Origin: a virus
Lineage: Duplodnaviria; Heunggongvirae; Uroviricota; Caudoviricetes
Length of the DNA stretch: 8,605 nt
Direction: 5' to 3' (one strand)
IMG/VR virus record: IMGVR_UViG_2695420564_000006
Shown here: positions 1 through 8,605 of the stretch, piece after piece
Layout of the letters: each line of letters begins with the position of its first letter
Numbering within the stretch: position 1 is the first letter of the stretch
Made by a program: the position numbers and the translations under genes
The notes under the pieces: model-generated
What the model saw: only the letters and a program-made list of their open reading frames with translations
Told to the model about the DNA's origin: nothing
The model's database searches: none

Positions 1-436
1 GCTTGCTGCTTTTCCGTAAGCACCGCTCACGGCGCGCCAGAAAATTGTTTCGTTCTGACTGGGAGTGGCTTTCACGGAATGCCGCCATCCACACGGTTGC
101 AGCACGACGGTATAAGCCCCTGGACTCCAGTTCTTCAGCCTGGCGGGTCAGGCACAAAATTACCCGGGGATCGTTAGTGCCGACATAGAAATTGCGCACA
201 GGTCTGGTTTCACGAACTGGTTGTGGTTCCGGCTCCTGCGCTCTCTCAGTCAGGCGCGGGAAATGTCTACGTGTATCTCCTTCACAACGGTGAGCCACAC
301 GCCCACTCTGACGTAACTTGCTTGCTGACTGCAGAACGCGCTGCCGTGAGTAACCTGCAAAAGCATCCGCAATGTCTCCGGAAGTACACCCCGGATGGGC
401 TTCAATGAATTTCTGAACGTCATTCAAAAGACTCAT
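1..436 (-). CDS. PerC-family-like transcriptional regulator with an N-terminal extension; 5' complete, 3' end runs off the window start
   Basis: ATG at 434-436 (minus), 2 nt after the stop of the upstream gene, preceded by a G-rich SD-like stretch. Open frame of 145 codons to position 2 with no stop; absent from the ORF track because it leaves the window. Translation ends ...AEELESRGLYRRAATVWMAAFRESHSQSERNNFLARRERCLRKSSK, matching the PerC/Pch pattern (LE-x-x-GL-aromatic-RRAA-x-x-W ... RR-x-x-CL) as I recall it. Confidence 0.45.
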   Translation of the reverse strand, partial: MSLLNDVQKFIEAHPGCTSGDIADAFAGYSRQRVLQSASKLRQSGRVAHRCEGDTRRHFPRLTERAQEPEPQPVRETRPVRNFYVGTNDPRVILCLTRQAEELESRGLYRRAATVWMAAFRESHSQSERNNFLARRERCLRKSSK

Positions 437-438
437 AA

Positions 439-1257
439 TCACCCCCTGAATCCTGCCGGGATCTGGCTGTAGTCCACATTGTCGTAACTGGCTTTGAAGT
501 ACGGGTCCTCGCGTCTGGCTGCAGATACTGCAGGAACTTCCCAGGATTCTTCGAAATGACGATCCGGACCAAAGAACGTGACAGCCTGTTTCACAAATTG
601 TGTGCCGCTGTTACCCATCGCAGATACCCAGCCCGCGTAGCGTTTCACACCTTCCAGCAAGGTTTCGGGGTTTACCCCCTCATTCAAACGGGCTTTCCAG
701 GCTTTGAAGGCTGCAGATTTTGAATTGCCACCAGCACGTTTGGGATAGGCCAGCCATGCCTGCTCAAACTCCGGAGAGTATTCCGGTCGGTTTGAACGAA
801 CTCGCACAGACTCATCAGCAGATGCACCAACAGCTATTGGTTCATTGACTGGTTCTTTGACTGGTTCAAAAGAGTGACTGGTTCTGGGTGAATCTCCTGC
901 ACTACCCCCTGGTGCAACTCCTGCACTATCTGGTGAATTTGCTGCACCAGATAGTGAATTATTTGCACTACCCCCTAGTGAATCTCCTGCACCATCAAGA
1001 TGAAGGAGATAGATATTACTTGAGTTACCTTTTTCACCTTTCCGGGTGACTTTTTTTACCAGCCCGGACTCACAAAGGGCCGCAATATGATTCATCACAG
1101 AACGTTTGCTAATCTCGCACTGGTCAGCAATATGCTGGTAGCTGGGCCAGCACTCACTCTGATCGCTGGCATTATCAGCCAGCTTGATCAGAACCAGTTT
1201 TCGCAATGGATTACCCACTCGAATTTTCATCGCTTTAACCATCAGCTCCATACTCAT
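439..1257 (-). CDS. phage-type replication initiation protein: N-terminal helix-turn-helix domain, repetitive Gly/Ser/Ala/Pro linker, C-terminal domain
   Basis: 272-aa ORF in the track. N-terminal region has an HTH-like segment (SYQHIADQCEISKRSVMNHIAALCESGLV). Central low-complexity linker (GAGDSLGGSANNSLSGAANSPDSAGVAPGGSAGDSP, EPVKEPVNEP) is encoded by tandem DNA repeats. Start overlaps the stop of the upstream ORF (ATGA at 1254-1257). Sits between Rha-like and PerC-like prophage genes. Confidence 0.6.
   Translation of the reverse strand: MSMELMVKAMKIRVGNPLRKLVLIKLADNASDQSECWPSYQHIADQCEISKRSVMNHIAALCESGLVKKVTRKGEKGNSSNIYLLHLDGAGDSLGGSANNSLSGAANSPDSAGVAPGGSAGDSPRTSHSFEPVKEPVNEPIAVGASADESVRVRSNRPEYSPEFEQAWLAYPKRAGGNSKSAAFKAWKARLNEGVNPETLLEGVKRYAGWVSAMGNSGTQFVKQAVTFFGPDRHFEESWEVPAVSAARREDPYFKASYDNVDYSQIPAGFRG
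887..994. repeat. iteron-like array: five imperfect ~18-bp direct repeats at 21-24 bp spacing (candidate replication origin inside the initiator gene)
   Basis: Units at 887-904 ggtgaatctcctgcacta, 911-928 ggtgcaactcctgcacta, 932-949 ggtgaatttgctgcacca, 953-970 agtgaattatttgcacta, 977-994 agtgaatctcctgcacca. Each is bounded by GGTG...CACC-type inverted ends. Three copies of (t)tgactggttc lie just upstream at 845-884, and a moderately AT-rich stretch follows at 996-1060. Confidence 0.5.
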
Positions 1258-1478
1258 GCTGCACCTCCGAGATGCTTCATGTTTTTTCCGGAGCGAAAGG
1301 CTATAAGCGGCATACTGACGCGGTAATTACGGCCCAGCGGTTCACAAATCACCTTCTGACATTCACGGTCAACCAGGCTAACACGTAGAACATGCCCTGC
1401 AGGCGTGGTGTACCACTGACCCGGACGAGGACAACAGAAAGTATGATTGGTAAACCGTTTGAAAATATTCCGGATCAT
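1254..1478 (-). CDS. small hypothetical prophage protein (74 aa), Cys-containing, possibly metal-binding
   Basis: ORF in the track. Start overlaps the stop of the upstream Rha-like ORF (ATGA at 1475-1478) and its stop overlaps the start of the replication gene. Cys residues at 15, 16, 40 and 45 (CC-x23-C-x4-C). No family recognised. Confidence 0.35.
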   Translation of the reverse strand: MIRNIFKRFTNHTFCCPRPGQWYTTPAGHVLRVSLVDRECQKVICEPLGRNYRVSMPLIAFRSGKNMKHLGGAA

Positions 1479-1855
1479 TTGCGCCCCCTTACCTCTGAAG
1501 GGTTCAGCGACAAATTTATGAGGCAGGCCAGTGCCGAAGCATCATTAATATAGTCATACAAGCTAACAGCCAGCGGAGATTCGGCTTTTGCCAACATAGG
1601 ATAAAGCTGCTGCAGCCAGACCTGATGAATTGATGAAATGTAGGAATAGAGAACGCTGGCGTTATGTGCAACGTCGCTCAGTACAGAGGGATTTGAAAGC
1701 TGTTTCTCCATCTGGTTAAAGGCATTTATGTATGCCTCTTTGAACCGGGCAGCACGTTTACCAGTGAAGCCCATAGCAAGGAACGCGAAGCCATCGCGGG
1801 TGATTTGATAGCAAGGTAGTTTGCGGCCTGTGCAATCGGTGTAATCACTNANNGA
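1475..1855 (-). CDS. Rha-family phage regulatory protein, C-terminal part only (5' end lost at the N-run 1850-1853)
   Basis: Translation contains [51 protein letters not shown], matching the conserved C-terminal end of the Phage_pRha domain as I recall it. The expected N-terminal part of the domain is absent and the in-frame upstream sequence beyond the N-run is unrelated. The track ORF 1475-1909 uses a TTG in that unrelated sequence. Confidence 0.5.
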
Positions 1856-1973
1856 AGTTATCGACAACGACCGCGAAGACTGGAAGCGTATCTCGGCATC
1901 AATGCGCAAACAGCCTGATGCCCTTCGCTACAACCGCCAGACTATTTTTGGCCTTGTCCGTAAACGTCCGATC

Positions 1974-2378
1974 ACCCGCCGCGCATTGGGCAAAAAAGCG
2001 TGGCCCGGCGTGTGGACCAACTCGGTTTGCGGCCACCCACAGCAAGGAGAAAGTAATGAAGAGGCAGTGATCCGCCGTTGCCGCTTTGAACTGGGCGTGG
2101 AAATAACGCCCCCCGAACCGATCTATCCAGACTTCTACTATCGCGCCACCGACCCGAATGGCATTGTCGAAAATGAAGTCTGTCCGGTATTTGCCGCGCG
2201 AATTACCAGCGCGTTACAGCCCAACAATGATGAAGTAATGGATTATCAGTGGTGTGATTTAGCGCAGGTATTACGCGGTATCGATGCCACGCCGTGGGCA
2301 TTCAGCCCATGGATGGTAATGCAAGCGACAAATAGCGAAGCCAAAAAACGGTTGTCTGCATTTGCCCAGCGTAAATAA
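1974..2378 (+). CDS. idi: isopentenyl-diphosphate delta-isomerase (type 1, Nudix fold), C-terminal ~134 codons; 5' part not idi-like
   Basis: Translation [48 protein letters not shown]...[30 protein letters not shown] matches enterobacterial Idi. Convergent with lysS as in E. coli. The 38 in-frame codons upstream (1861-1973) do not resemble the Idi N-terminus. Confidence 0.8.
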
Positions 2379-2402
2379 AAAACCCCGACGATTGCCGGGG
2401 TT
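2379..2402. terminator. putative bidirectional intrinsic terminator between convergent idi and lysS
   Basis: GC-rich hairpin ccccg-acgattgc-cgggg (2383-2400), flanked by an A-run on the plus strand (2373-2382), which is a T-run for the minus-strand lysS transcript. Confidence 0.4.
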
Positions 2403-2420
2403 GTAAGCGTAGCGTAATGC

Positions 2421-3263
2421 TTATTTTACCGGACGCATCGCCGGGAACAGAATCACGTCGCGGATGGTGTGGCTGTTGGTGAACAGCATCACCATACGAT
2501 CGATACCAATCCCCAGACCCGCAGTTGGCGGTAAGCCATGTTCCAGCGCGGTGACGTAATCTTCGTCGTAGAACATCGCTTCGTCGTCGCCCGCCTCTTT
2601 CGCGGCAACCTGATCCTGGAAACGTTGCGCCTGATCTTCTGCGTCGTTCAGCTCGCTAAAGCCGTTACCGATTTCACGACCACCGATGAAGAATTCAAAG
2701 CGGTCAGTGATTTCCGGGTTAACGTCGTTACGGCGTGCCAGCGGAGAAACTTCTGCCGGATATTCAGTAATGAAGGTCGGCTGAATCAAATGTGCTTCTG
2801 CCACTTCTTCGAAGATCTCAGTTACGATACGGCCCAGTCCCCAGCTCTTCTCAACGTGAATGCCAATAGATTCAGCAATCGCTTTCGCAGAGTCGAAGTT
2901 ATCCAGATCCGCCATCTCAGTTTCCGGGCGGTATTTTTTGATCGCTTCACGCATGGTCAGTTTTTCAAACGGCTTACCGAAGTCCAGCGTCACGTCGCCG
3001 TAGGTTACTTCCGTCTTACCGAGAATATCCTGTGCCAGAGTACGGAACAGCGATTCGGTCAGCTCGATCAGATCTTTGTAATCTGCGTAAGCCATGTAGA
3101 GTTCCATCATAGTGAACTCTGGGTTATGGCGTACGGAGATACCTTCGTTACGGAAGTTACGGTTGATTTCGAACACACGCTCGAAGCCGCCAACCACCAG
3201 ACGCTTGAGGTACAGTTCCGGCGCGATACGCAGGTACATGTCGAGATCCAGCGCGTTATNNAN
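2421..3263 (-). CDS. lysS: lysyl-tRNA synthetase, C-terminal catalytic (class II) domain, ~280 codons; N-terminal anticodon-binding domain missing
   Basis: Translation ...[51 protein letters not shown]...[32 protein letters not shown] matches LysS. The frame hits a stop two codons beyond the N-run at 3260-3263, so the gene is truncated there. Confidence 0.9.
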
Positions 3264-3362
3264 GTTTCATGCCCGCAGCCAGGTGTTGTTACCCGATGAC
3301 GATGGTAGATTGCAGCCATTGACGCATCCACAGGGGATGACGCCATGGGACGAGGCTATCGC

Positions 3363-4604
3363 CCACNGGCANNNNTGAGCGAAACCCTGTTCAAACCCCG
3401 CTTTAAACATCCTGAAACGTCGACGCTAGTCCGCCGCTTTAATCACGGCGCGCAATCGCCTGTGCAGTCGGCCCTTGATGGCAAAACCATTCCCCATTGG
3501 TATCGCATGATTAACCGTTTGATGTGGATCTGGCGCGGCGTTGACCCGCGTGAAATCCTCGGCGTCCAGGCGCGTATTGTGATGAGCGATGCCGAACGCA
3601 CCGACGATGATTTATACGATACAGTAATTGGCTACCGCGGCGGCAACTGGATTTATGAGTGGGCTACCCAGGCGATGGAATGGCAGCAGAAAGCTTGTGC
3701 GGAAGAAGATCCGCAAGTCAGCGGGCGTCACTGGTTGCATGCAGCCACACTGTATAACATCGCCGCCTATCCGCATCTGAAAGGGGACGATCTGGCGGAG
3801 CAAGCCCAGGCGTTGTCAAACCGCGCTTATGAAGAGGCAGCGCAACGTCTGCCAGGAAGTATGCGGCAAATGGAGTTCACTGTTCCAGGCGGTGCGCCCA
3901 TCACTGGTTTTTTGCATATGCCAAAAGGCGATGGGCCATTCCCGACAGTATTAATGTGTGGCGGGCTGGATGCGATGCAAACAGATTATTACTCCCTTTA
4001 TGAGCGCTATTTTGCACCGCGCGGCATTGCAATGTTGACTATTGATATGCCTTCGGTCGGTTTCTCTTCAAAATGGAAGCTCACCCAGGACTCCAGTCTT
4101 CTGCATCAGCATGTTTTAAAGGCGTTGCCGAATGTGCCGTGGGTAGATCACACGCGCGTCGTGGCCTTTGGTTTCCGTTTTGGCGCTAACGTTGCTGTGC
4201 GTCTGGCTTACCTTGAATCACCGCGTTTGAAAGCGGTGGCTTGCCTTGGTCCGGTAGTTCATACCTTGTTAAGTGACTTTCAGTGCCAGCAACAGGTGCC
4301 GGAAATGTACCTTGACGTTCTGGCGAGTCGTTTAGGGATGCACGATGCTTCAGACGACGCTTTGCGCGTAGAGCTGAACCGCTATTCGTTAAAAGTGCAA
4401 GGGTTGCTGGGGCGTCGCTGTCCAACGCCAATGTTATCAGGTTACTGGAAGAACGATCCTTTTAGCCCGGAAGAGGACTCGCGGTTAATCGCTTCGTCAT
4501 CTGCTGACGGTAAATTGTTAGAGATTCCGTTCAATCCGGTGTATCGGAATTTTGACAAAGCGCTTCAGGAAATCACCAACTGGATCGAAAAACGATTGTG
4601 TTAA
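3363..4604 (+). CDS. frsA: fermentation/respiration switch protein FrsA (alpha/beta hydrolase); native ATG absent
   Basis: Translation from codon 2, (T)[30 protein letters not shown]...NWIEKRLC, matches FrsA over its full length. N's at 3367 and 3372-3375 fall in codons 2-5. The bases where the ATG should be (3360-3362) read cgc. An in-frame ATG at 3345 lies in unrelated upstream sequence. Confidence 0.9.
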
Positions 4605-5063
<459 letters not shown>

Positions 5064-5073
5064 CTGACATGTA

Positions 5074-5103
5074 CCGGGTTAGATGCTCGTACATCTAACC
5101 CGG
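5074..5103. terminator. perfect 12-bp-stem hairpin downstream of crl (possible terminator or RNA structure)
   Basis: ccgggttagatg (5074-5085), loop ctcgta, catctaacccgg (5092-5103), exact reverse complements. No immediate U-run; a T-run follows at 5116-5121. Confidence 0.45.
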
Positions 5104-5121
5104 CCTGGAATATTAGTTTTT

Positions 5122-5155
5122 GTAGGCCGGATAAGGCGTTCTCGTTGCATCCGGC
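5122..5155. repeat. REP (repetitive extragenic palindromic) element
   Basis: The reverse complement gccggatgcaacgagaacgccttatccggcctac fits the E. coli REP consensus (GCCGGATGCGGCG...CGCCTTATCCGGCCTAC). Lies in the crl-phoE intergenic space. Confidence 0.7.
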
Positions 5156-5163
5156 AATATTCG

Positions 5164-5976
5164 TTAAAATTGATATGTCATTCCAACCGCGACAATATCA
5201 TCATTATTAATATTCAACTTGTTATTGCTATCCAGTTGGTTGATTTTATAATCAACAAACGCTGACATATTTTTGTTGAAAAAATATGTTGCACTGACAT
5301 CAATATAATTGACCAGATCCTCATCACCGATGCCTTCAATATCTTTTCCTTTTGATAATACATAACCTAACGATGGACGCAGACCAAAATCAAATTGATA
5401 TTGCGCGACGGCTTCAAAATTTTGTGTTTTATTAGCAAAACCGCCAGAAATTGGCGTCATGTTACGTGTTTCAGAATAAAAAGTTGCCAGGTAAATATCG
5501 TTGGCGTCATATTTCAGGCCTGTTGCCCATGCTTCTGCGCGCTTGCCTGTACCACGGCTTTGCAGGTTTTGCTCATTGGTGCGGTCAGAATTAGTATAGG
5601 CTCCGCTGATGGCAAAATCGCTGCCGCCAAAGTCATAACTCAGTGAAGTACCGAATCCATCACCGTTTTGCTTTTTCACATCGCGATTTTCGTTTTTTCC
5701 TTGATATTGCAGGGTTAAGTTCAGGCCATCTACAATGCCGAAGAAGTCGGTATTACGATAAGTTGCCAGTCCGCTGGCGCGCTTGGTCATAAAGTTGTCG
5801 GTTTGTGCGGAGGAATCGCCACCAAATTCCGGGAACATATCGGTCCAGGCTTCTACGTCATATAACGCGCCCAGGTTACGACCATAATCAAAAGAACCCA
5901 AATCTTTATATTTCAATCCGGCAAACGCGAGGTGCGTTTTTTGCTGTGTGGTATCGCTTTCAGCTTTATTCCCGGC
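5164..5976 (-). CDS. phoE: outer-membrane phosphoporin PhoE, C-terminal ~270 codons; N-terminal ~90 codons including signal peptide missing
   Basis: Translation [53 protein letters not shown]...VAVGMTYQF, with the porin C-terminal F, matches PhoE. The frame breaks at the N-run 5977-5983 and sequence beyond is unrelated. The track start at 5916 is a TTG inside the gene. Confidence 0.9.
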
Positions 5977-6027
5977 NNNCNGNGGCGATGAGTACCGCTA
6001 ACAACAATGTTGGCGGCGCTGCGCCGG

Positions 6028-6111
6028 GGAACCTGCAAGATCAAAGCAATCGGCGGCTTCGCAGATCCCCTTTATAAACATCAGGCAGATTACTAACATC
6101 CATTTTTTCAT
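6028..6111 (-). CDS. N-terminal fragment (~27 codons) of an F-like plasmid lytic transglycosylase (orf169 / gene 19 family), truncated
   Basis: ATG at 6109-6111 (minus) with a GGTGGA SD-like motif 5 nt upstream. [27 protein letters not shown] matches the signal-peptide N-terminus of the F orf169 / R1 P19 family as I recall it. Similarity stops after ~27 codons and the frame ends 10 codons later. Confidence 0.45.
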
Positions 6112-6119
6112 TTTTCCAC

Positions 6120-6217
6120 CTCTGGTGACTTTATCCGTAAATAATTTAACCCACTCCACAAAAAGGCTCAACAGGTTGGTGGTTCTCACAACCAAAAGCG
6201 GCANANNCNNCGCNNNG
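6120..6217. other. F-like plasmid oriT-like fragment (nic-proximal region), partly N-masked
   Basis: ggtggttctcacaaccaaaagcggca-N-a-NN-c-NN-cgc-NNN resembles the F oriT segment ggtggttctcaccaccaaaagcaccacaccccacgc (reverse complement of the nic-site strand). It is immediately upstream of the orf169-like start, as on F-like plasmids. Confidence 0.4.
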
Positions 6218-6218
6218 G

Positions 6219-6751
6219 GGGGATAAAACCACATTTTGGCAAGCTAACGTCAGGGCCACGAACATGCTGGCACAGACGGCAGGCAGGTTGTGTATTCCCC
6301 GGTTTATCCATATCTCCACGCCCGCGGTGTATTTTGATTTTCAGCATCATTATGACCTGCAAGAAACGTATCTTGCCCGGGCATTCTCCAGCTATTACGC
6401 CAGCAGCAAATACGCTGCTGAGCAGGCTATTGCCGGGGCGGTATCTCAATATCCGACCACGACGTTTATTCTTTTGCGTCCCCGTGGTTTGTTTGGCCCC
6501 CATGACCAGGTAATTGTTCCTCGTCTGATGCGGCAGCTGCAACAAGGCGGCGGCCTTCTACGTTTACCGCGCGGTGGTGAAGCGTTATTGGATCTCACGT
6601 TCGTGCAAAATGTGGTGTATGCCATGCAACTGGCAACGCAAGTTGAAGGATTACGCTCGGGCAGTATTTACAACATCAGCAATCATCAGCCGCAGCCGTT
6701 ATCTGTGATGCTTGACGCCTTGCTGCGCCAGCAACTGGGCTTGAGTTACCA
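6219..6751 (+). CDS. NAD-dependent epimerase/dehydratase (extended SDR) family protein, YbjS-like, internal-to-C-terminal fragment
   Basis: In-frame translation from 6219, ...FWQANVRATNMLAQTAGRLCIPRFIHISTPAVYFDFQHHYDLQETYLARAFSSYYASSKYAAEQ..., carries the SDR catalytic YxxxK (YASSK) and resembles E. coli YbjS-type proteins. The Rossmann N-terminus is absent and the C-terminus changes character after the N at 6752. Confidence 0.5.
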
Positions 6752-6889
6752 NAAGGCAACTCTGAAAAAAGCGAGGAAATACTGCTACCATCAGGAAGAT
6801 GAGTCACAATCAACGGAAGAACTTCTACAACCATAATATAAATTGCAGAGAACATTACAAACTTAATGAGTGCAGTACGAAAAATAAAA

Positions 6890-7630
6890 CCANNACTGGC
6901 CCGCGCGGTGGTTGCCGGGTTAGCGCAAGCAGATACGCTGAGGATGCGTTTTACGGAAGATAACGGCGAAGTCTGGCAATGGGTCGATGATGCGCTGACG
7001 TTCGAACAGCCAGAAATTATTGACCTGCGTACCAACATTGATCCGCACGGTACTGCGCGGGCATTAATGCAGGCGGATTTACAACAAAACCTGCGTATCG
7101 ATAGTGGTAATCCGCTTGTTTTTCATAAGATTATACAGGTGGAGGATAATCGTTGGTACTGGTATCAACGTTATCACCATTTGCTGGTCGATGGCTTCAG
7201 TTTCCCGGCCATTACCCGCCAGATAGCCAACATTTATTGTGCCTGGCTGCGTGGCGAACCTACGCCTGCGTCGCCGTTTACTTCTTTCACTGATGTAGTG
7301 GAAGAGTACCAGCAATATCGCGAAAGCGAAGCCTGGCAGCGTGATGCGGCTTTCTGGGCGGATCAACGTCGTCAACTACCGCCGCCAGCGTCACTTTCGC
7401 CTGCACCTTTACCGGGGCGCAGTGCCTCGGCAGATATTCTGCGCCTGAAACTGGAATTTACTGACGGGGAATTCCGCCAACTGGCAGCGCAACTTCCGAC
7501 CGTACAACGTACCGATTTAGCTCTCGCGCTGGCGGCATTGTGGCTGGGGCGATTGTGCAACCGCATGGACTATGCCGCCGGATTTATCTTTATGCGCCGT
7601 ATGGGCTCGGCGGCGTTGACGGCTACCGGA
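6890..7630 (+). CDS. entF: enterobactin non-ribosomal peptide synthetase EntF, N-terminal condensation-domain fragment (~247 codons)
   Basis: Translation P-x-LARAVVAGLAQADTLRMRFTEDNGEVWQWVDDALTFEQPEIIDLRTNIDPHGTA...YWYQRYHHLLVDGFSFPAIT...LCNRMDYAAGFIFMRRMGSAALTATG matches EntF residues ~30-275, including the HHxxxDG condensation motif (HHLLVDG). Flanked by unrelated sequence at both ends. Confidence 0.85.
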
Positions 7631-7631
7631 N

Positions 7632-8441
7632 GAGCTGCAATTGCCCACTTCAACTTATCGTTTTGCCGATAGCGAAAGTCTTTTCCGCGAGGCGGTTGCC
7701 GACATCGGCTATCCCTGCATTGTTAAACCGGTGATGAGTTCCTCTGGCAAGGGGCAGACATTTATTCGCTCTGCCGAACAGCTTAGCCAGGCATGGGAAT
7801 ACGCCCAGCAAGGCGGTCGCGCCGGAGCAGGTCGCGTGATTGTTGAAGGCGTGGTTAAGTTTGACTTCGAAATTACATTACTGACCGTCAGTGCCGCGGA
7901 TGGAGTCCATTTCTGTGCCCCCGTAGGCCATCGCCAGGAAGATGGCGACTACCGGGAATCATGGCAACCACAGCAAATGAGTCCGCTGGCCCTGGAACGC
8001 GCGCAGGAAATTGCCCGCAAAGTGGTACTGGCGCTGGGCGGTTATGGTCTGTTTGGCGTCGAGTTGTTTGTTTGTGGTGATGAGGTGATTTTCAGCGAAG
8101 TCTCCCCTCGCCCGCATGATACCGGGATGGTGACGTTAATTTCCCAGGATCTTTCGGAGTTTGCCCTGCACGTACGCGCTTTTCTCGGTCTTCCGGTTGG
8201 CGCTATTCGCCAGTATGGTCCGGCCGCTTCAGCCGTTATCCTGCCGCAACTGACCAGCCAGAACATCACGTTTGATAATGTGCAGAATGCCGTTGGCGCA
8301 GGTTTGCAGATTCGTTTATTTGGTAAGCCGGAAATTGATGGCAGCCGTCGTCTGGGGGTAGCGCTGGCGACCGCTGAGAGTGTTGATGAGGCCATTGAAC
8401 GTGCGAAGCTCGCCGCCGGACAGGTGAAAGTACAAGGTTAA
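7632..8441 (+). CDS. purT: formate-dependent phosphoribosylglycinamide formyltransferase (GAR transformylase 2, ATP-grasp), C-terminal ~268 codons
   Basis: Translation [51 protein letters not shown]...[14 protein letters not shown] matches PurT from about residue 124 to the end. The entF frame runs directly into it at 7630 with no intergenic space. Confidence 0.9.
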
Positions 8442-8464
8442 ACCCGGCAAAAAACGCGACAAAA

Positions 8465-8490
8465 ATGCCCGATTAACAATCGGGCATTTT
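8465..8490. terminator. bidirectional rho-independent terminator between convergent purT and eda
   Basis: Stem atgcccgatt (8465-8474), loop aac, aatcgggcat (8478-8487), followed by ttt and preceded by aaaaa, so it has a U-run on either strand. Confidence 0.6.
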
Positions 8491-8495
8491 GATTC

Positions 8496-8531
8496 TTACA
8501 GCTTCGCGCCTTCTACAGCTTCGCGCGCCAG
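8496..8531 (-). CDS. eda: last 11 codons plus stop of KDPG aldolase (Eda); rest of the gene absent
   Basis: Minus-strand translation LAREAVEGAKL-stop matches the Eda C-terminus as I recall it, and eda is the native convergent neighbour of purT. Upstream of the N-run 8532-8536 the frame no longer resembles Eda. Confidence 0.35.
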   Translation of the reverse strand: MAREAVEGAKL

Positions 8532-8605
8532 NNNANTATCAGCAGGAGCTGCTGGAAGGAAAACCAAAGCCCAACAACAGCGAACTGGTGGTACGCAACT
8601 GGTAT

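Follow-up and report, generated by a model that had tools for sequence, protein, structure and literature searches.

The window considered here is the whole 8,605-bp stretch held as virus record IMGVR_UViG_2695420564_000006. It is identical from end to end to contig CCBU01000360.1 of assembly GCA_000940615.1, the single contig returned by an exact-protein look-up of its 272-amino-acid (aa) prophage open reading frame (ORF), and the finding described below therefore concerns one complete draft contig. The contig is made up of twelve pieces that meet at eleven junctions (Table 1), as segmented by searches of complete Escherichia coli genomes, plasmids and phages and then by local BLAST against fetched reference loci. 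The pieces range from 48 to 2,613 bp, and each is collinear with a different locus, with 0–1 gaps per piece. A preliminary description of the window, made from its letters, had read it as a mosaic of unlinked loci and as a chimeric or scaffolding artefact. That reading is supported by the full-contig identity, by the differing native contexts of the pieces, by the base conflicts recorded at the Ns, and by contradictions from a sibling assembly, GCA_000936005.1.

Native loci and source of the twelve pieces

Pieces that adjoin in the window are never native neighbours in any reference compared (complete Escherichia albertii genomes, ten loci with an identical Crl protein, three idi loci and several prophages). 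The ten Crl loci run gpt-frsA-crl-phoE-proBA, with phoE complete and gpt upstream of frsA. The E. albertii loci designated L027 and L029 run uacT-idi-lysS-prfB-recJ, with a LysS of 505 aa; in a third, L028, IS66-family genes replace uacT upstream of idi, and the idi-lysS-prfB-recJ order is the same. The Rha/ASH gene is uncut in the E. albertii prophages, where native sequence extends past the position equivalent to 1849. On the K-12 map, idi-lysS lies at about 3.03 Mb, entF at about 0.61 Mb and purT-eda at about 1.93 Mb; we take kdpD to lie at about 0.72, frsA-crl-phoE at about 0.26, nfrA at about 0.59 and ybhR at about 0.83 Mb. The blocks thus correspond to non-adjacent loci in finished genomes, which is the pattern that marks a misjoined contig.

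Table 1. Pieces (with the genes that they carry) and junctions (J1–J11) of the 8,605-bp window, in order
Feature	Positions	Strand	Content	N positions
Piece 1	1–1849	−	Lambdoid prophage early/replication region
J1	1850–1856		Prophage / exonuclease; NANNGAA (left native CACCGAA, right native AAATGAA)	1850, 1852–1853
Piece 2	1854–1973	+	120-bp internal fragment of a prophage exonuclease gene (RecE / exodeoxyribonuclease VIII type); 98.3% to PPompW-type prophage gene
J2	1973/1974		Exonuclease / idi; 2-nucleotide (nt) TC overlap at 1972–1973	none
Piece 3	1974–3259 (TC overlap from 1972)	both	idi-lysS block with intergenic region
idi	1974–2378	+	Codons 49–182
lysS	2421–3259	−	Codons ~227–505
J3	3260–3263		lysS / kdpD; NNAN; same N pattern in sibling contig CDRK01000276.1	3260–3261, 3263
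Piece 4	3264–3366	+	Internal kdpD fragment, codons ~542–576
J4	3364–3375		kdpD / frsA; reads CACNGGCANNNN	3367, 3372–3375
Piece 5	3364–5976	both	frsA-crl-phoE block
frsA	ends 4604	+	Codon 2 to stop
crl	4662–5063	+	Intact
phoE	5164–5976	−	Codons ~82–351
J5	5977–5983		phoE / nfrA; NNNCNGN	5977–5979, 5981, 5983
Piece 6	5984–6031	+	48-bp internal nfrA fragment, codons ~754–770; 91.7% to E. coli nfrA
J6	6030/6031		nfrA / plasmid; 1-nt A overlap at 6031	none
Piece 7	6031–6199	−	F-like plasmid DNA; 98.8% to IncF plasmids
orf169/gene X	start 6111	−	First 27 codons of SLT transglycosylase gene, plus upstream DNA
J7	6200–6216		Plasmid / epimerase; GGCANANNCNNCGCNNN	6204, 6206–6207, 6209–6210, 6214–6216
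Piece 8	6198–6750	+	Accessory NAD-dependent epimerase/dehydratase gene, codons ~74–258
J8	6752		Epimerase / DUF2523; single N	6752
Piece 9	6753–6892	−	DUF2523 gene codons ~13–60, filamentous-phage-like prophage
J9	6893–6894		DUF2523 / entF; NN	6893–6894
Piece 10	6890–7630	+	entF codons ~42–288; 90.1% to K-12 entF
J10	7631		entF / purT; single N	7631
Piece 11	7629–8531	both	purT-eda; 88.8% to K-12 purT-eda
purT	ends 8441	+	Codon ~123 to stop, then intergenic terminator region
eda	~8496–8531	−	Last ~12 codons
J11	8532–8536		eda / ybhR; NNNAN	8532–8534, 8536
Piece 12	8537–8605	+	ybhR codons ~143–165, runs to contig end; 95.7% to E. coli ybhR

Much of the gene content had been read correctly from the letters. 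The native pairs idi/lysS, frsA-crl-phoE and purT/eda, and the 5' end of orf169 together with oriT-proximal DNA, were all found. The preliminary description had noted that lysS meets a stop two codons past its N-run (the TGA is at 3267–3269), that the entF frame passes into purT (the ORF at 6866–7672 extends 14 codons into the purT piece), and that crl is the only intact housekeeping gene; frsA, indeed, has no start codon and carries Ns in codons 2–6. The lysS drawn in the window is truncated and could not function. Among the genes called on the contig are a DUF2523-EntF-PurT fusion of 268 aa and a KdpD-FrsA one of 419 aa. The stretch at 1854–1973, which had been taken as idi, is instead the prophage exonuclease fragment, and the kdpD, nfrA, epimerase, DUF2523 and ybhR fragments had gone unnamed.

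Judged by sequence identity (99.2–100% as against 87–92%), the chromosomal DNA is that of E. albertii and not of K-12-type E. coli. The preliminary description had spoken of an E. coli K-12-type chromosome with plasmid and prophage DNA; the plasmid and the prophage stand, and the K-12 attribution is therefore right only as a gene map. The frsA-crl-phoE block reaches at best 89.6% identity among 5,426 complete E. coli genomes and 99.1–99.5% at the ten identical-Crl loci, which were taken as E. albertii, an assignment with which the other E. albertii comparisons agree. The idi-lysS block is 99.2–99.4% identical to the loci L027–L029 from three assemblies, which carry an identical Idi protein that NCBI labels E. 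albertii, as against 91.7% for K-12. The same-species lysS reference was fetched via this Idi protein; a protein homology search with LysS had been discarded, LysS being too conserved and the best long contig being E. coli-like, at 91.5%. For the kdpD fragment, a wobble-tolerant pattern run over 185,579 species-representative genomes gave a sole match, the E. albertii type strain NBRC 107761, at 100/100 identical positions, as against 87.3% identity to E. coli. Prophages of several E. albertii assemblies match piece 1 at 99.7% identity, and E. albertii is also the NCBI label of the 74-aa ORF in this piece. The nfrA, entF, purT-eda, epimerase and ybhR pieces, which were compared with E. coli only, show 86–96% identity to it; since this is the same range of divergence, we infer an E. 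albertii origin for them as well.

The plasmid, filamentous-phage and exonuclease pieces could instead derive from E. coli contaminating a mixed sample. Their references were E. coli records, to which they are 98.3–100% identical, but mobile elements of these kinds are shared across Escherichia, and piece 1 also matches E. coli phages (phiSTEC1575-Stx2k and mEp460) at 98% and yet is 99.7% identical to copies in E. albertii genomes. All of the chromosomal pieces, moreover, stand at E. albertii-level divergence from E. coli. Contamination is thus improbable, and it would alter the source of three pieces only, leaving the verdict of an artefact unchanged. The 140-bp piece 9 occurs at 100% identity in 27 of the 5,426 complete E. 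coli genomes (E. coli Z0117EC0005 among them), in up to four copies per genome, and this match suggests that the E. albertii isolate carries the same filamentous-phage-like prophage.

Base conflicts at the junctions

The window contains 32 Ns in nine short clusters, in which Ns are interleaved with called bases (e.g. NANN, NGGCANNNN, NANNCNNCGCNNN). The clusters lie 0.5–4.5 bp from homology breakpoints mapped independently by BLAST, and none of 200,000 random placements came as close. This bears out the earlier remark that N clusters sit where reading frames stop matching their families; the spans then listed were also right, apart from one given as 6205–6217 that actually runs from 6204 to 6216. 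Two of the eleven junctions, J2 and J6, carry no N and had been overlooked. Their overlaps are so short, at 2 nt and 1 nt, that there was no mismatch to mark.

What the Ns record was determined by aligning the window at each junction with the sequence that natively follows the left piece and with that which natively precedes the right one; same-species references served wherever they had been obtained. Every one of the 32 Ns marks a position at which the two native sequences disagree (P = 1e-4). The bases called between Ns fall mostly where both native sequences agree (10/14, P = 3e-4), and the four exceptions (3262, 3370, 3371 and 5982) all carry the base of the right-hand piece. At J7, as many as 8 of 13 positions are N. 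Each junction thus looks like a consensus over a pseudo-overlap of 0–19 nt between two unrelated sequences. Since the Ns mark conflicts between native sequences, both native sequences must exist in the underlying data, as is expected of a misjoin.

Ns in draft assemblies usually stand for scaffold gaps, and the clusters might on that account be small placeholders between contigs that are true neighbours. The window does resemble such a scaffold in having Ns between separately assembled pieces. However, its Ns do not form contiguous runs and stand for no missing sequence, since the native sequence of both partners reaches into the N zones, and the flanks of these zones were not adjacent in any finished genome compared. 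This explanation has a negligible probability, the lowest of those considered here.

The junctions also show exact microhomology of 1–5 nt (GAA, TC, CAC and CCA, with CAGAA in the sibling assembly). No direct or inverted repeats, insertion sequence (IS) ends or integrase genes are found at any junction, and the gene and Pfam lists hold no integrase or transposase anywhere in the window, so that the recombinases, terminal repeats and target-site duplications that are the hallmarks of a mosaic island are not seen. By eye there is no restriction site or motif shared by the piece ends, with GATC at one piece end only, and the base-composition profile of the window shows nothing diagnostic. One candidate for a physical DNA end was the oriT nic site near the end of the plasmid piece. 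The position of nic in F/R1 was taken from oligonucleotides described in PMC5422253; the DNA upstream of orf169 reaches into the 22 nt 3' of nic and covers 19 of them, and nic itself is within the N zone. Plasmid-native conflicts reach up to 14 nt beyond nic, and piece 7 therefore does not end there.

The sibling assembly and the origin of the joins

Independent occurrences of the junctions were sought in large collections. The 158-aa exonuclease-Idi ORF that spans J2 without any N is found only in CCBU01000360.1 among 153 billion gene positions, and in no Logan run assembly. A 29-mer spanning J6 has no match in the 185,579 representative genomes, and in the E. coli, plasmid and phage collections any one record spans 30% of the window at most. 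The truncated 272-aa LysS ORF at J3 occurs, again among 153 billion gene positions, in one other contig on record, the 5,803-bp CDRK01000276.1 of the sibling assembly. The preliminary description had held that an independent genome with the blocks in the same order would refute an artefact. No such genome was found in any of these searches, and the sole match, at J3, is a non-independent sibling with different false neighbours.

CDRK01000276.1 shares window positions 1972–3369 (1,398 bp), with one called-base difference, at 1989, and one further position that is N in the window. It is native where the window has J2, running from idi upstream into uacT, and where the window has J4, continuing for 36 more kdpD bases. 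It has false joins of its own, to entF codons ~514–1222 and to rpmF/yceD, so that the pieces joined in it are entF, kdpD, lysS-idi-uacT and rpmF-yceD. The kdpD piece that follows J3 accordingly runs for 102 bp in one deposit and 138 bp in the other before each jumps to a different locus. A second sibling contig, CDRK01000120.1 (44.7 kb), is identical to window positions 1045–1856 (812 bp) at all called bases. It stays native for 593 bp beyond J1, and it has an N-marked break of its own at the equivalent of about 1030–1037, where the window is native. The 20 kb of this contig that were examined hold seven N clusters, and its gene list has hslUV, PTS genes, a Clp ATPase, the prophage and an efflux pump as neighbours, by which it appears to be another mosaic.

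The two deposits thus differ at one called base over 1,398 + 812 bp, whereas the counts for other E. albertii strains are 3 (over 1,856 bp) and 10 (over 1,288 bp); one strain, or two that are nearly identical, must therefore lie behind them. Of the four junctions that can be compared, the sibling nevertheless contradicts three (J1, J2 and J4); only J3 is shared, with identical Ns, and the other collections searched yielded none of the junctions. At the one differing base, 1989, the window has G where the sibling, native E. albertii and K-12 idi have A. This G is probably an error near a join, as it lies only 16 nt from J2.

A genuine mosaic in the strain, i.e. a real rearranged island or an extrachromosomal element composed of chromosomal, phage and plasmid fragments, would fit the presence of J3 in two deposited assemblies. 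Such an element is very hard to reconcile with the other evidence: the Ns reveal both native sequences in the data at each join, the short kdpD piece leads to differing jumps in the two deposits, native order persists in the sibling across J1, J2 and J4, the genes are cut mid-codon with no hallmarks of recombination or transposition, and complete E. albertii genomes keep the native order. Its probability is very small, and genuine rearrangement, like ordinary scaffold gaps, is effectively excluded.

In all likelihood, this contig of a deposited draft genome was misassembled, with false joins made in silico when sequences were chained with a pairwise, and probably quality-aware, consensus over forced overlaps. 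In such a process, twelve fragments from the chromosome of one E. albertii isolate, from at least two or three prophages and from an F-like plasmid would have been chained end to end. At each join two sequences without real homology would have been overlaid across a pseudo-overlap of 0–19 nt and merged into a consensus in which agreeing bases were kept and disagreeing ones became N in most cases and the right-hand base on occasion. The false adjacency would then come from software (an assembler, a scaffolder or a contig merger) rather than from the test tube. Chimeric draft contigs, scored as relocations or translocations in reference-based evaluation, resemble the window in that distant collinear blocks are abutted, genes are cut at the block ends, and the joins are missing from complete genomes and from a second assembly of the same strain. 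The window differs from the usual examples in packing 11 false joins into 8.6 kb, with pieces down to 48 bp, in having interleaved Ns that record the conflicts position by position, and in that one misjoin recurs in a second deposit.

Several observations weigh against an origin in software. One is the presence of J3, with identical Ns, in two separately accessioned assemblies, as a random software error is not expected to recur; the recurrence would fit if both deposits shared reads or a deterministic pipeline. The four disagreeing positions noted above were called as the right-hand base and not as N, and the uacT/rpmF join in the sibling has two mismatches called without any N, so that the consensus rule cannot have been a plain one in which a mismatch gives N. 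The exact microhomology of 1–5 nt is also what would be expected of template-switch chimeras in real DNA. Finally, no reads, assembly metadata or publication were found for CCBU01, CDRK01 or either GCA number, in searches that included the literature and the E. albertii projects at ENA.

The simplest reading of the recurrence of J3, and a hypothetical one, is that both deposits come from the same reads or from the same deterministic pipeline. A boundary of the repeat formed by lysS and lysU was considered as another cause and rejected: with K-12 lysU as proxy, the breakpoint falls in an 11-base identical run, and longer exact runs (up to 35 nt) occur elsewhere.

Chimeras that arise in amplification or ligation, for example in multiple displacement amplification, join unrelated loci at a few bases of microhomology; they are individually rare and have sharp junctions. 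The window shares with them the short microhomology and some read-sized pieces, and departs from them in its consensus conflicts within the junction zones and in that the sibling lacks most of the joins. Physical chimeras, formed by in vitro blunt-end co-ligation or by template switching during whole-genome or PCR amplification and then faithfully assembled, with the Ns marking conflict with reads from the native loci, are an unlikely source of the window, though the most credible of the alternatives. The microhomologies at its junctions and in the sibling fit such an origin, as do pieces of 48–169 bp; even the shared J3 with different distal partners could be accommodated if both deposits came from a single amplified preparation in which an early chimera had been chimerised again. 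However, a minority molecule at normal coverage would yield no contig, and conflict with native reads would not place Ns at nearly every disagreeing position across zones of 19 nt or less, whereas the density of Ns at J7 resembles a one-against-one consensus. Furthermore, three of the four comparable junctions are missing from the sibling deposit of the same strain, and the chimeric J2 ORF is in no Logan run assembly. It is likewise improbable, and more so than physical chimerism at large, that the junctions are real DNA formed by microhomology-mediated template switching in the cell or in an amplified preparation, with lysS/kdpD as an early chimera that later acquired other partners and with the Ns reflecting only conflict with the native loci.

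As a misassembled contig, the window is not a real DNA molecule and holds no biological novelty. Its value is as a warning about database quality, in that two public GenBank assemblies, GCA_000940615.1 and GCA_000936005.1, hold densely chimeric contigs. Artificial ORFs from them, such as the exonuclease-Idi fusion and the truncated LysS, are already in large protein collections, and contigs of this kind could mislead work on synteny, pangenomes, horizontal transfer or plasmid integration in E. albertii. Short clusters of Ns interleaved with bases provide a simple screen for the same fault elsewhere, although misjoins free of N, like the two in the window, would escape it.

Minor features of individual pieces

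The prophage DNA of piece 1 carries a PerC-like gene interrupted by the end of the contig, a gene for a 272-aa HTH_36 replication protein (439–1257, − strand), the 74-aa ORF, and the 3' part of the Rha/ASH antirepressor-type gene, cut at 1849. No contig on record other than CCBU01000360.1 has this exact 272-aa protein. Within its gene, positions 888–996 contain direct repeats that resemble iterons, in units of 43 nt that are 81% alike, together with an inverted repeat of 24 nt; this is probably the replication origin of the prophage. The prophage DNA differs from other E. albertii copies at 269, 660 and 1158; the difference at 1158 is confirmed by the sibling assembly, and at least this one is therefore strain-specific and not an error.

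A REP-like intergenic repeat lies 3' of crl, at about 5117–5160, and gives short 89–93% matches to intergenic DNA in four unrelated loci. Plasmid records with a match to the window number 4,020, and near the oriT nic site the window reads CAACC where the published oligonucleotides read CACC. In the E. coli genomes that match piece 9, the neighbours of the DUF2523 gene are Zot-like, secretin-like and replication endonuclease genes. The epimerase gene of piece 8 is 85.7–86.7% identical to a gene that adjoins narI in 674 of the 5,426 E. coli genomes, in a cluster that also encodes a KAS III-like enzyme, an MBL-fold hydrolase, an F390-synthetase-like protein, a PAP2 phosphatase and a sterol-desaturase-like protein.

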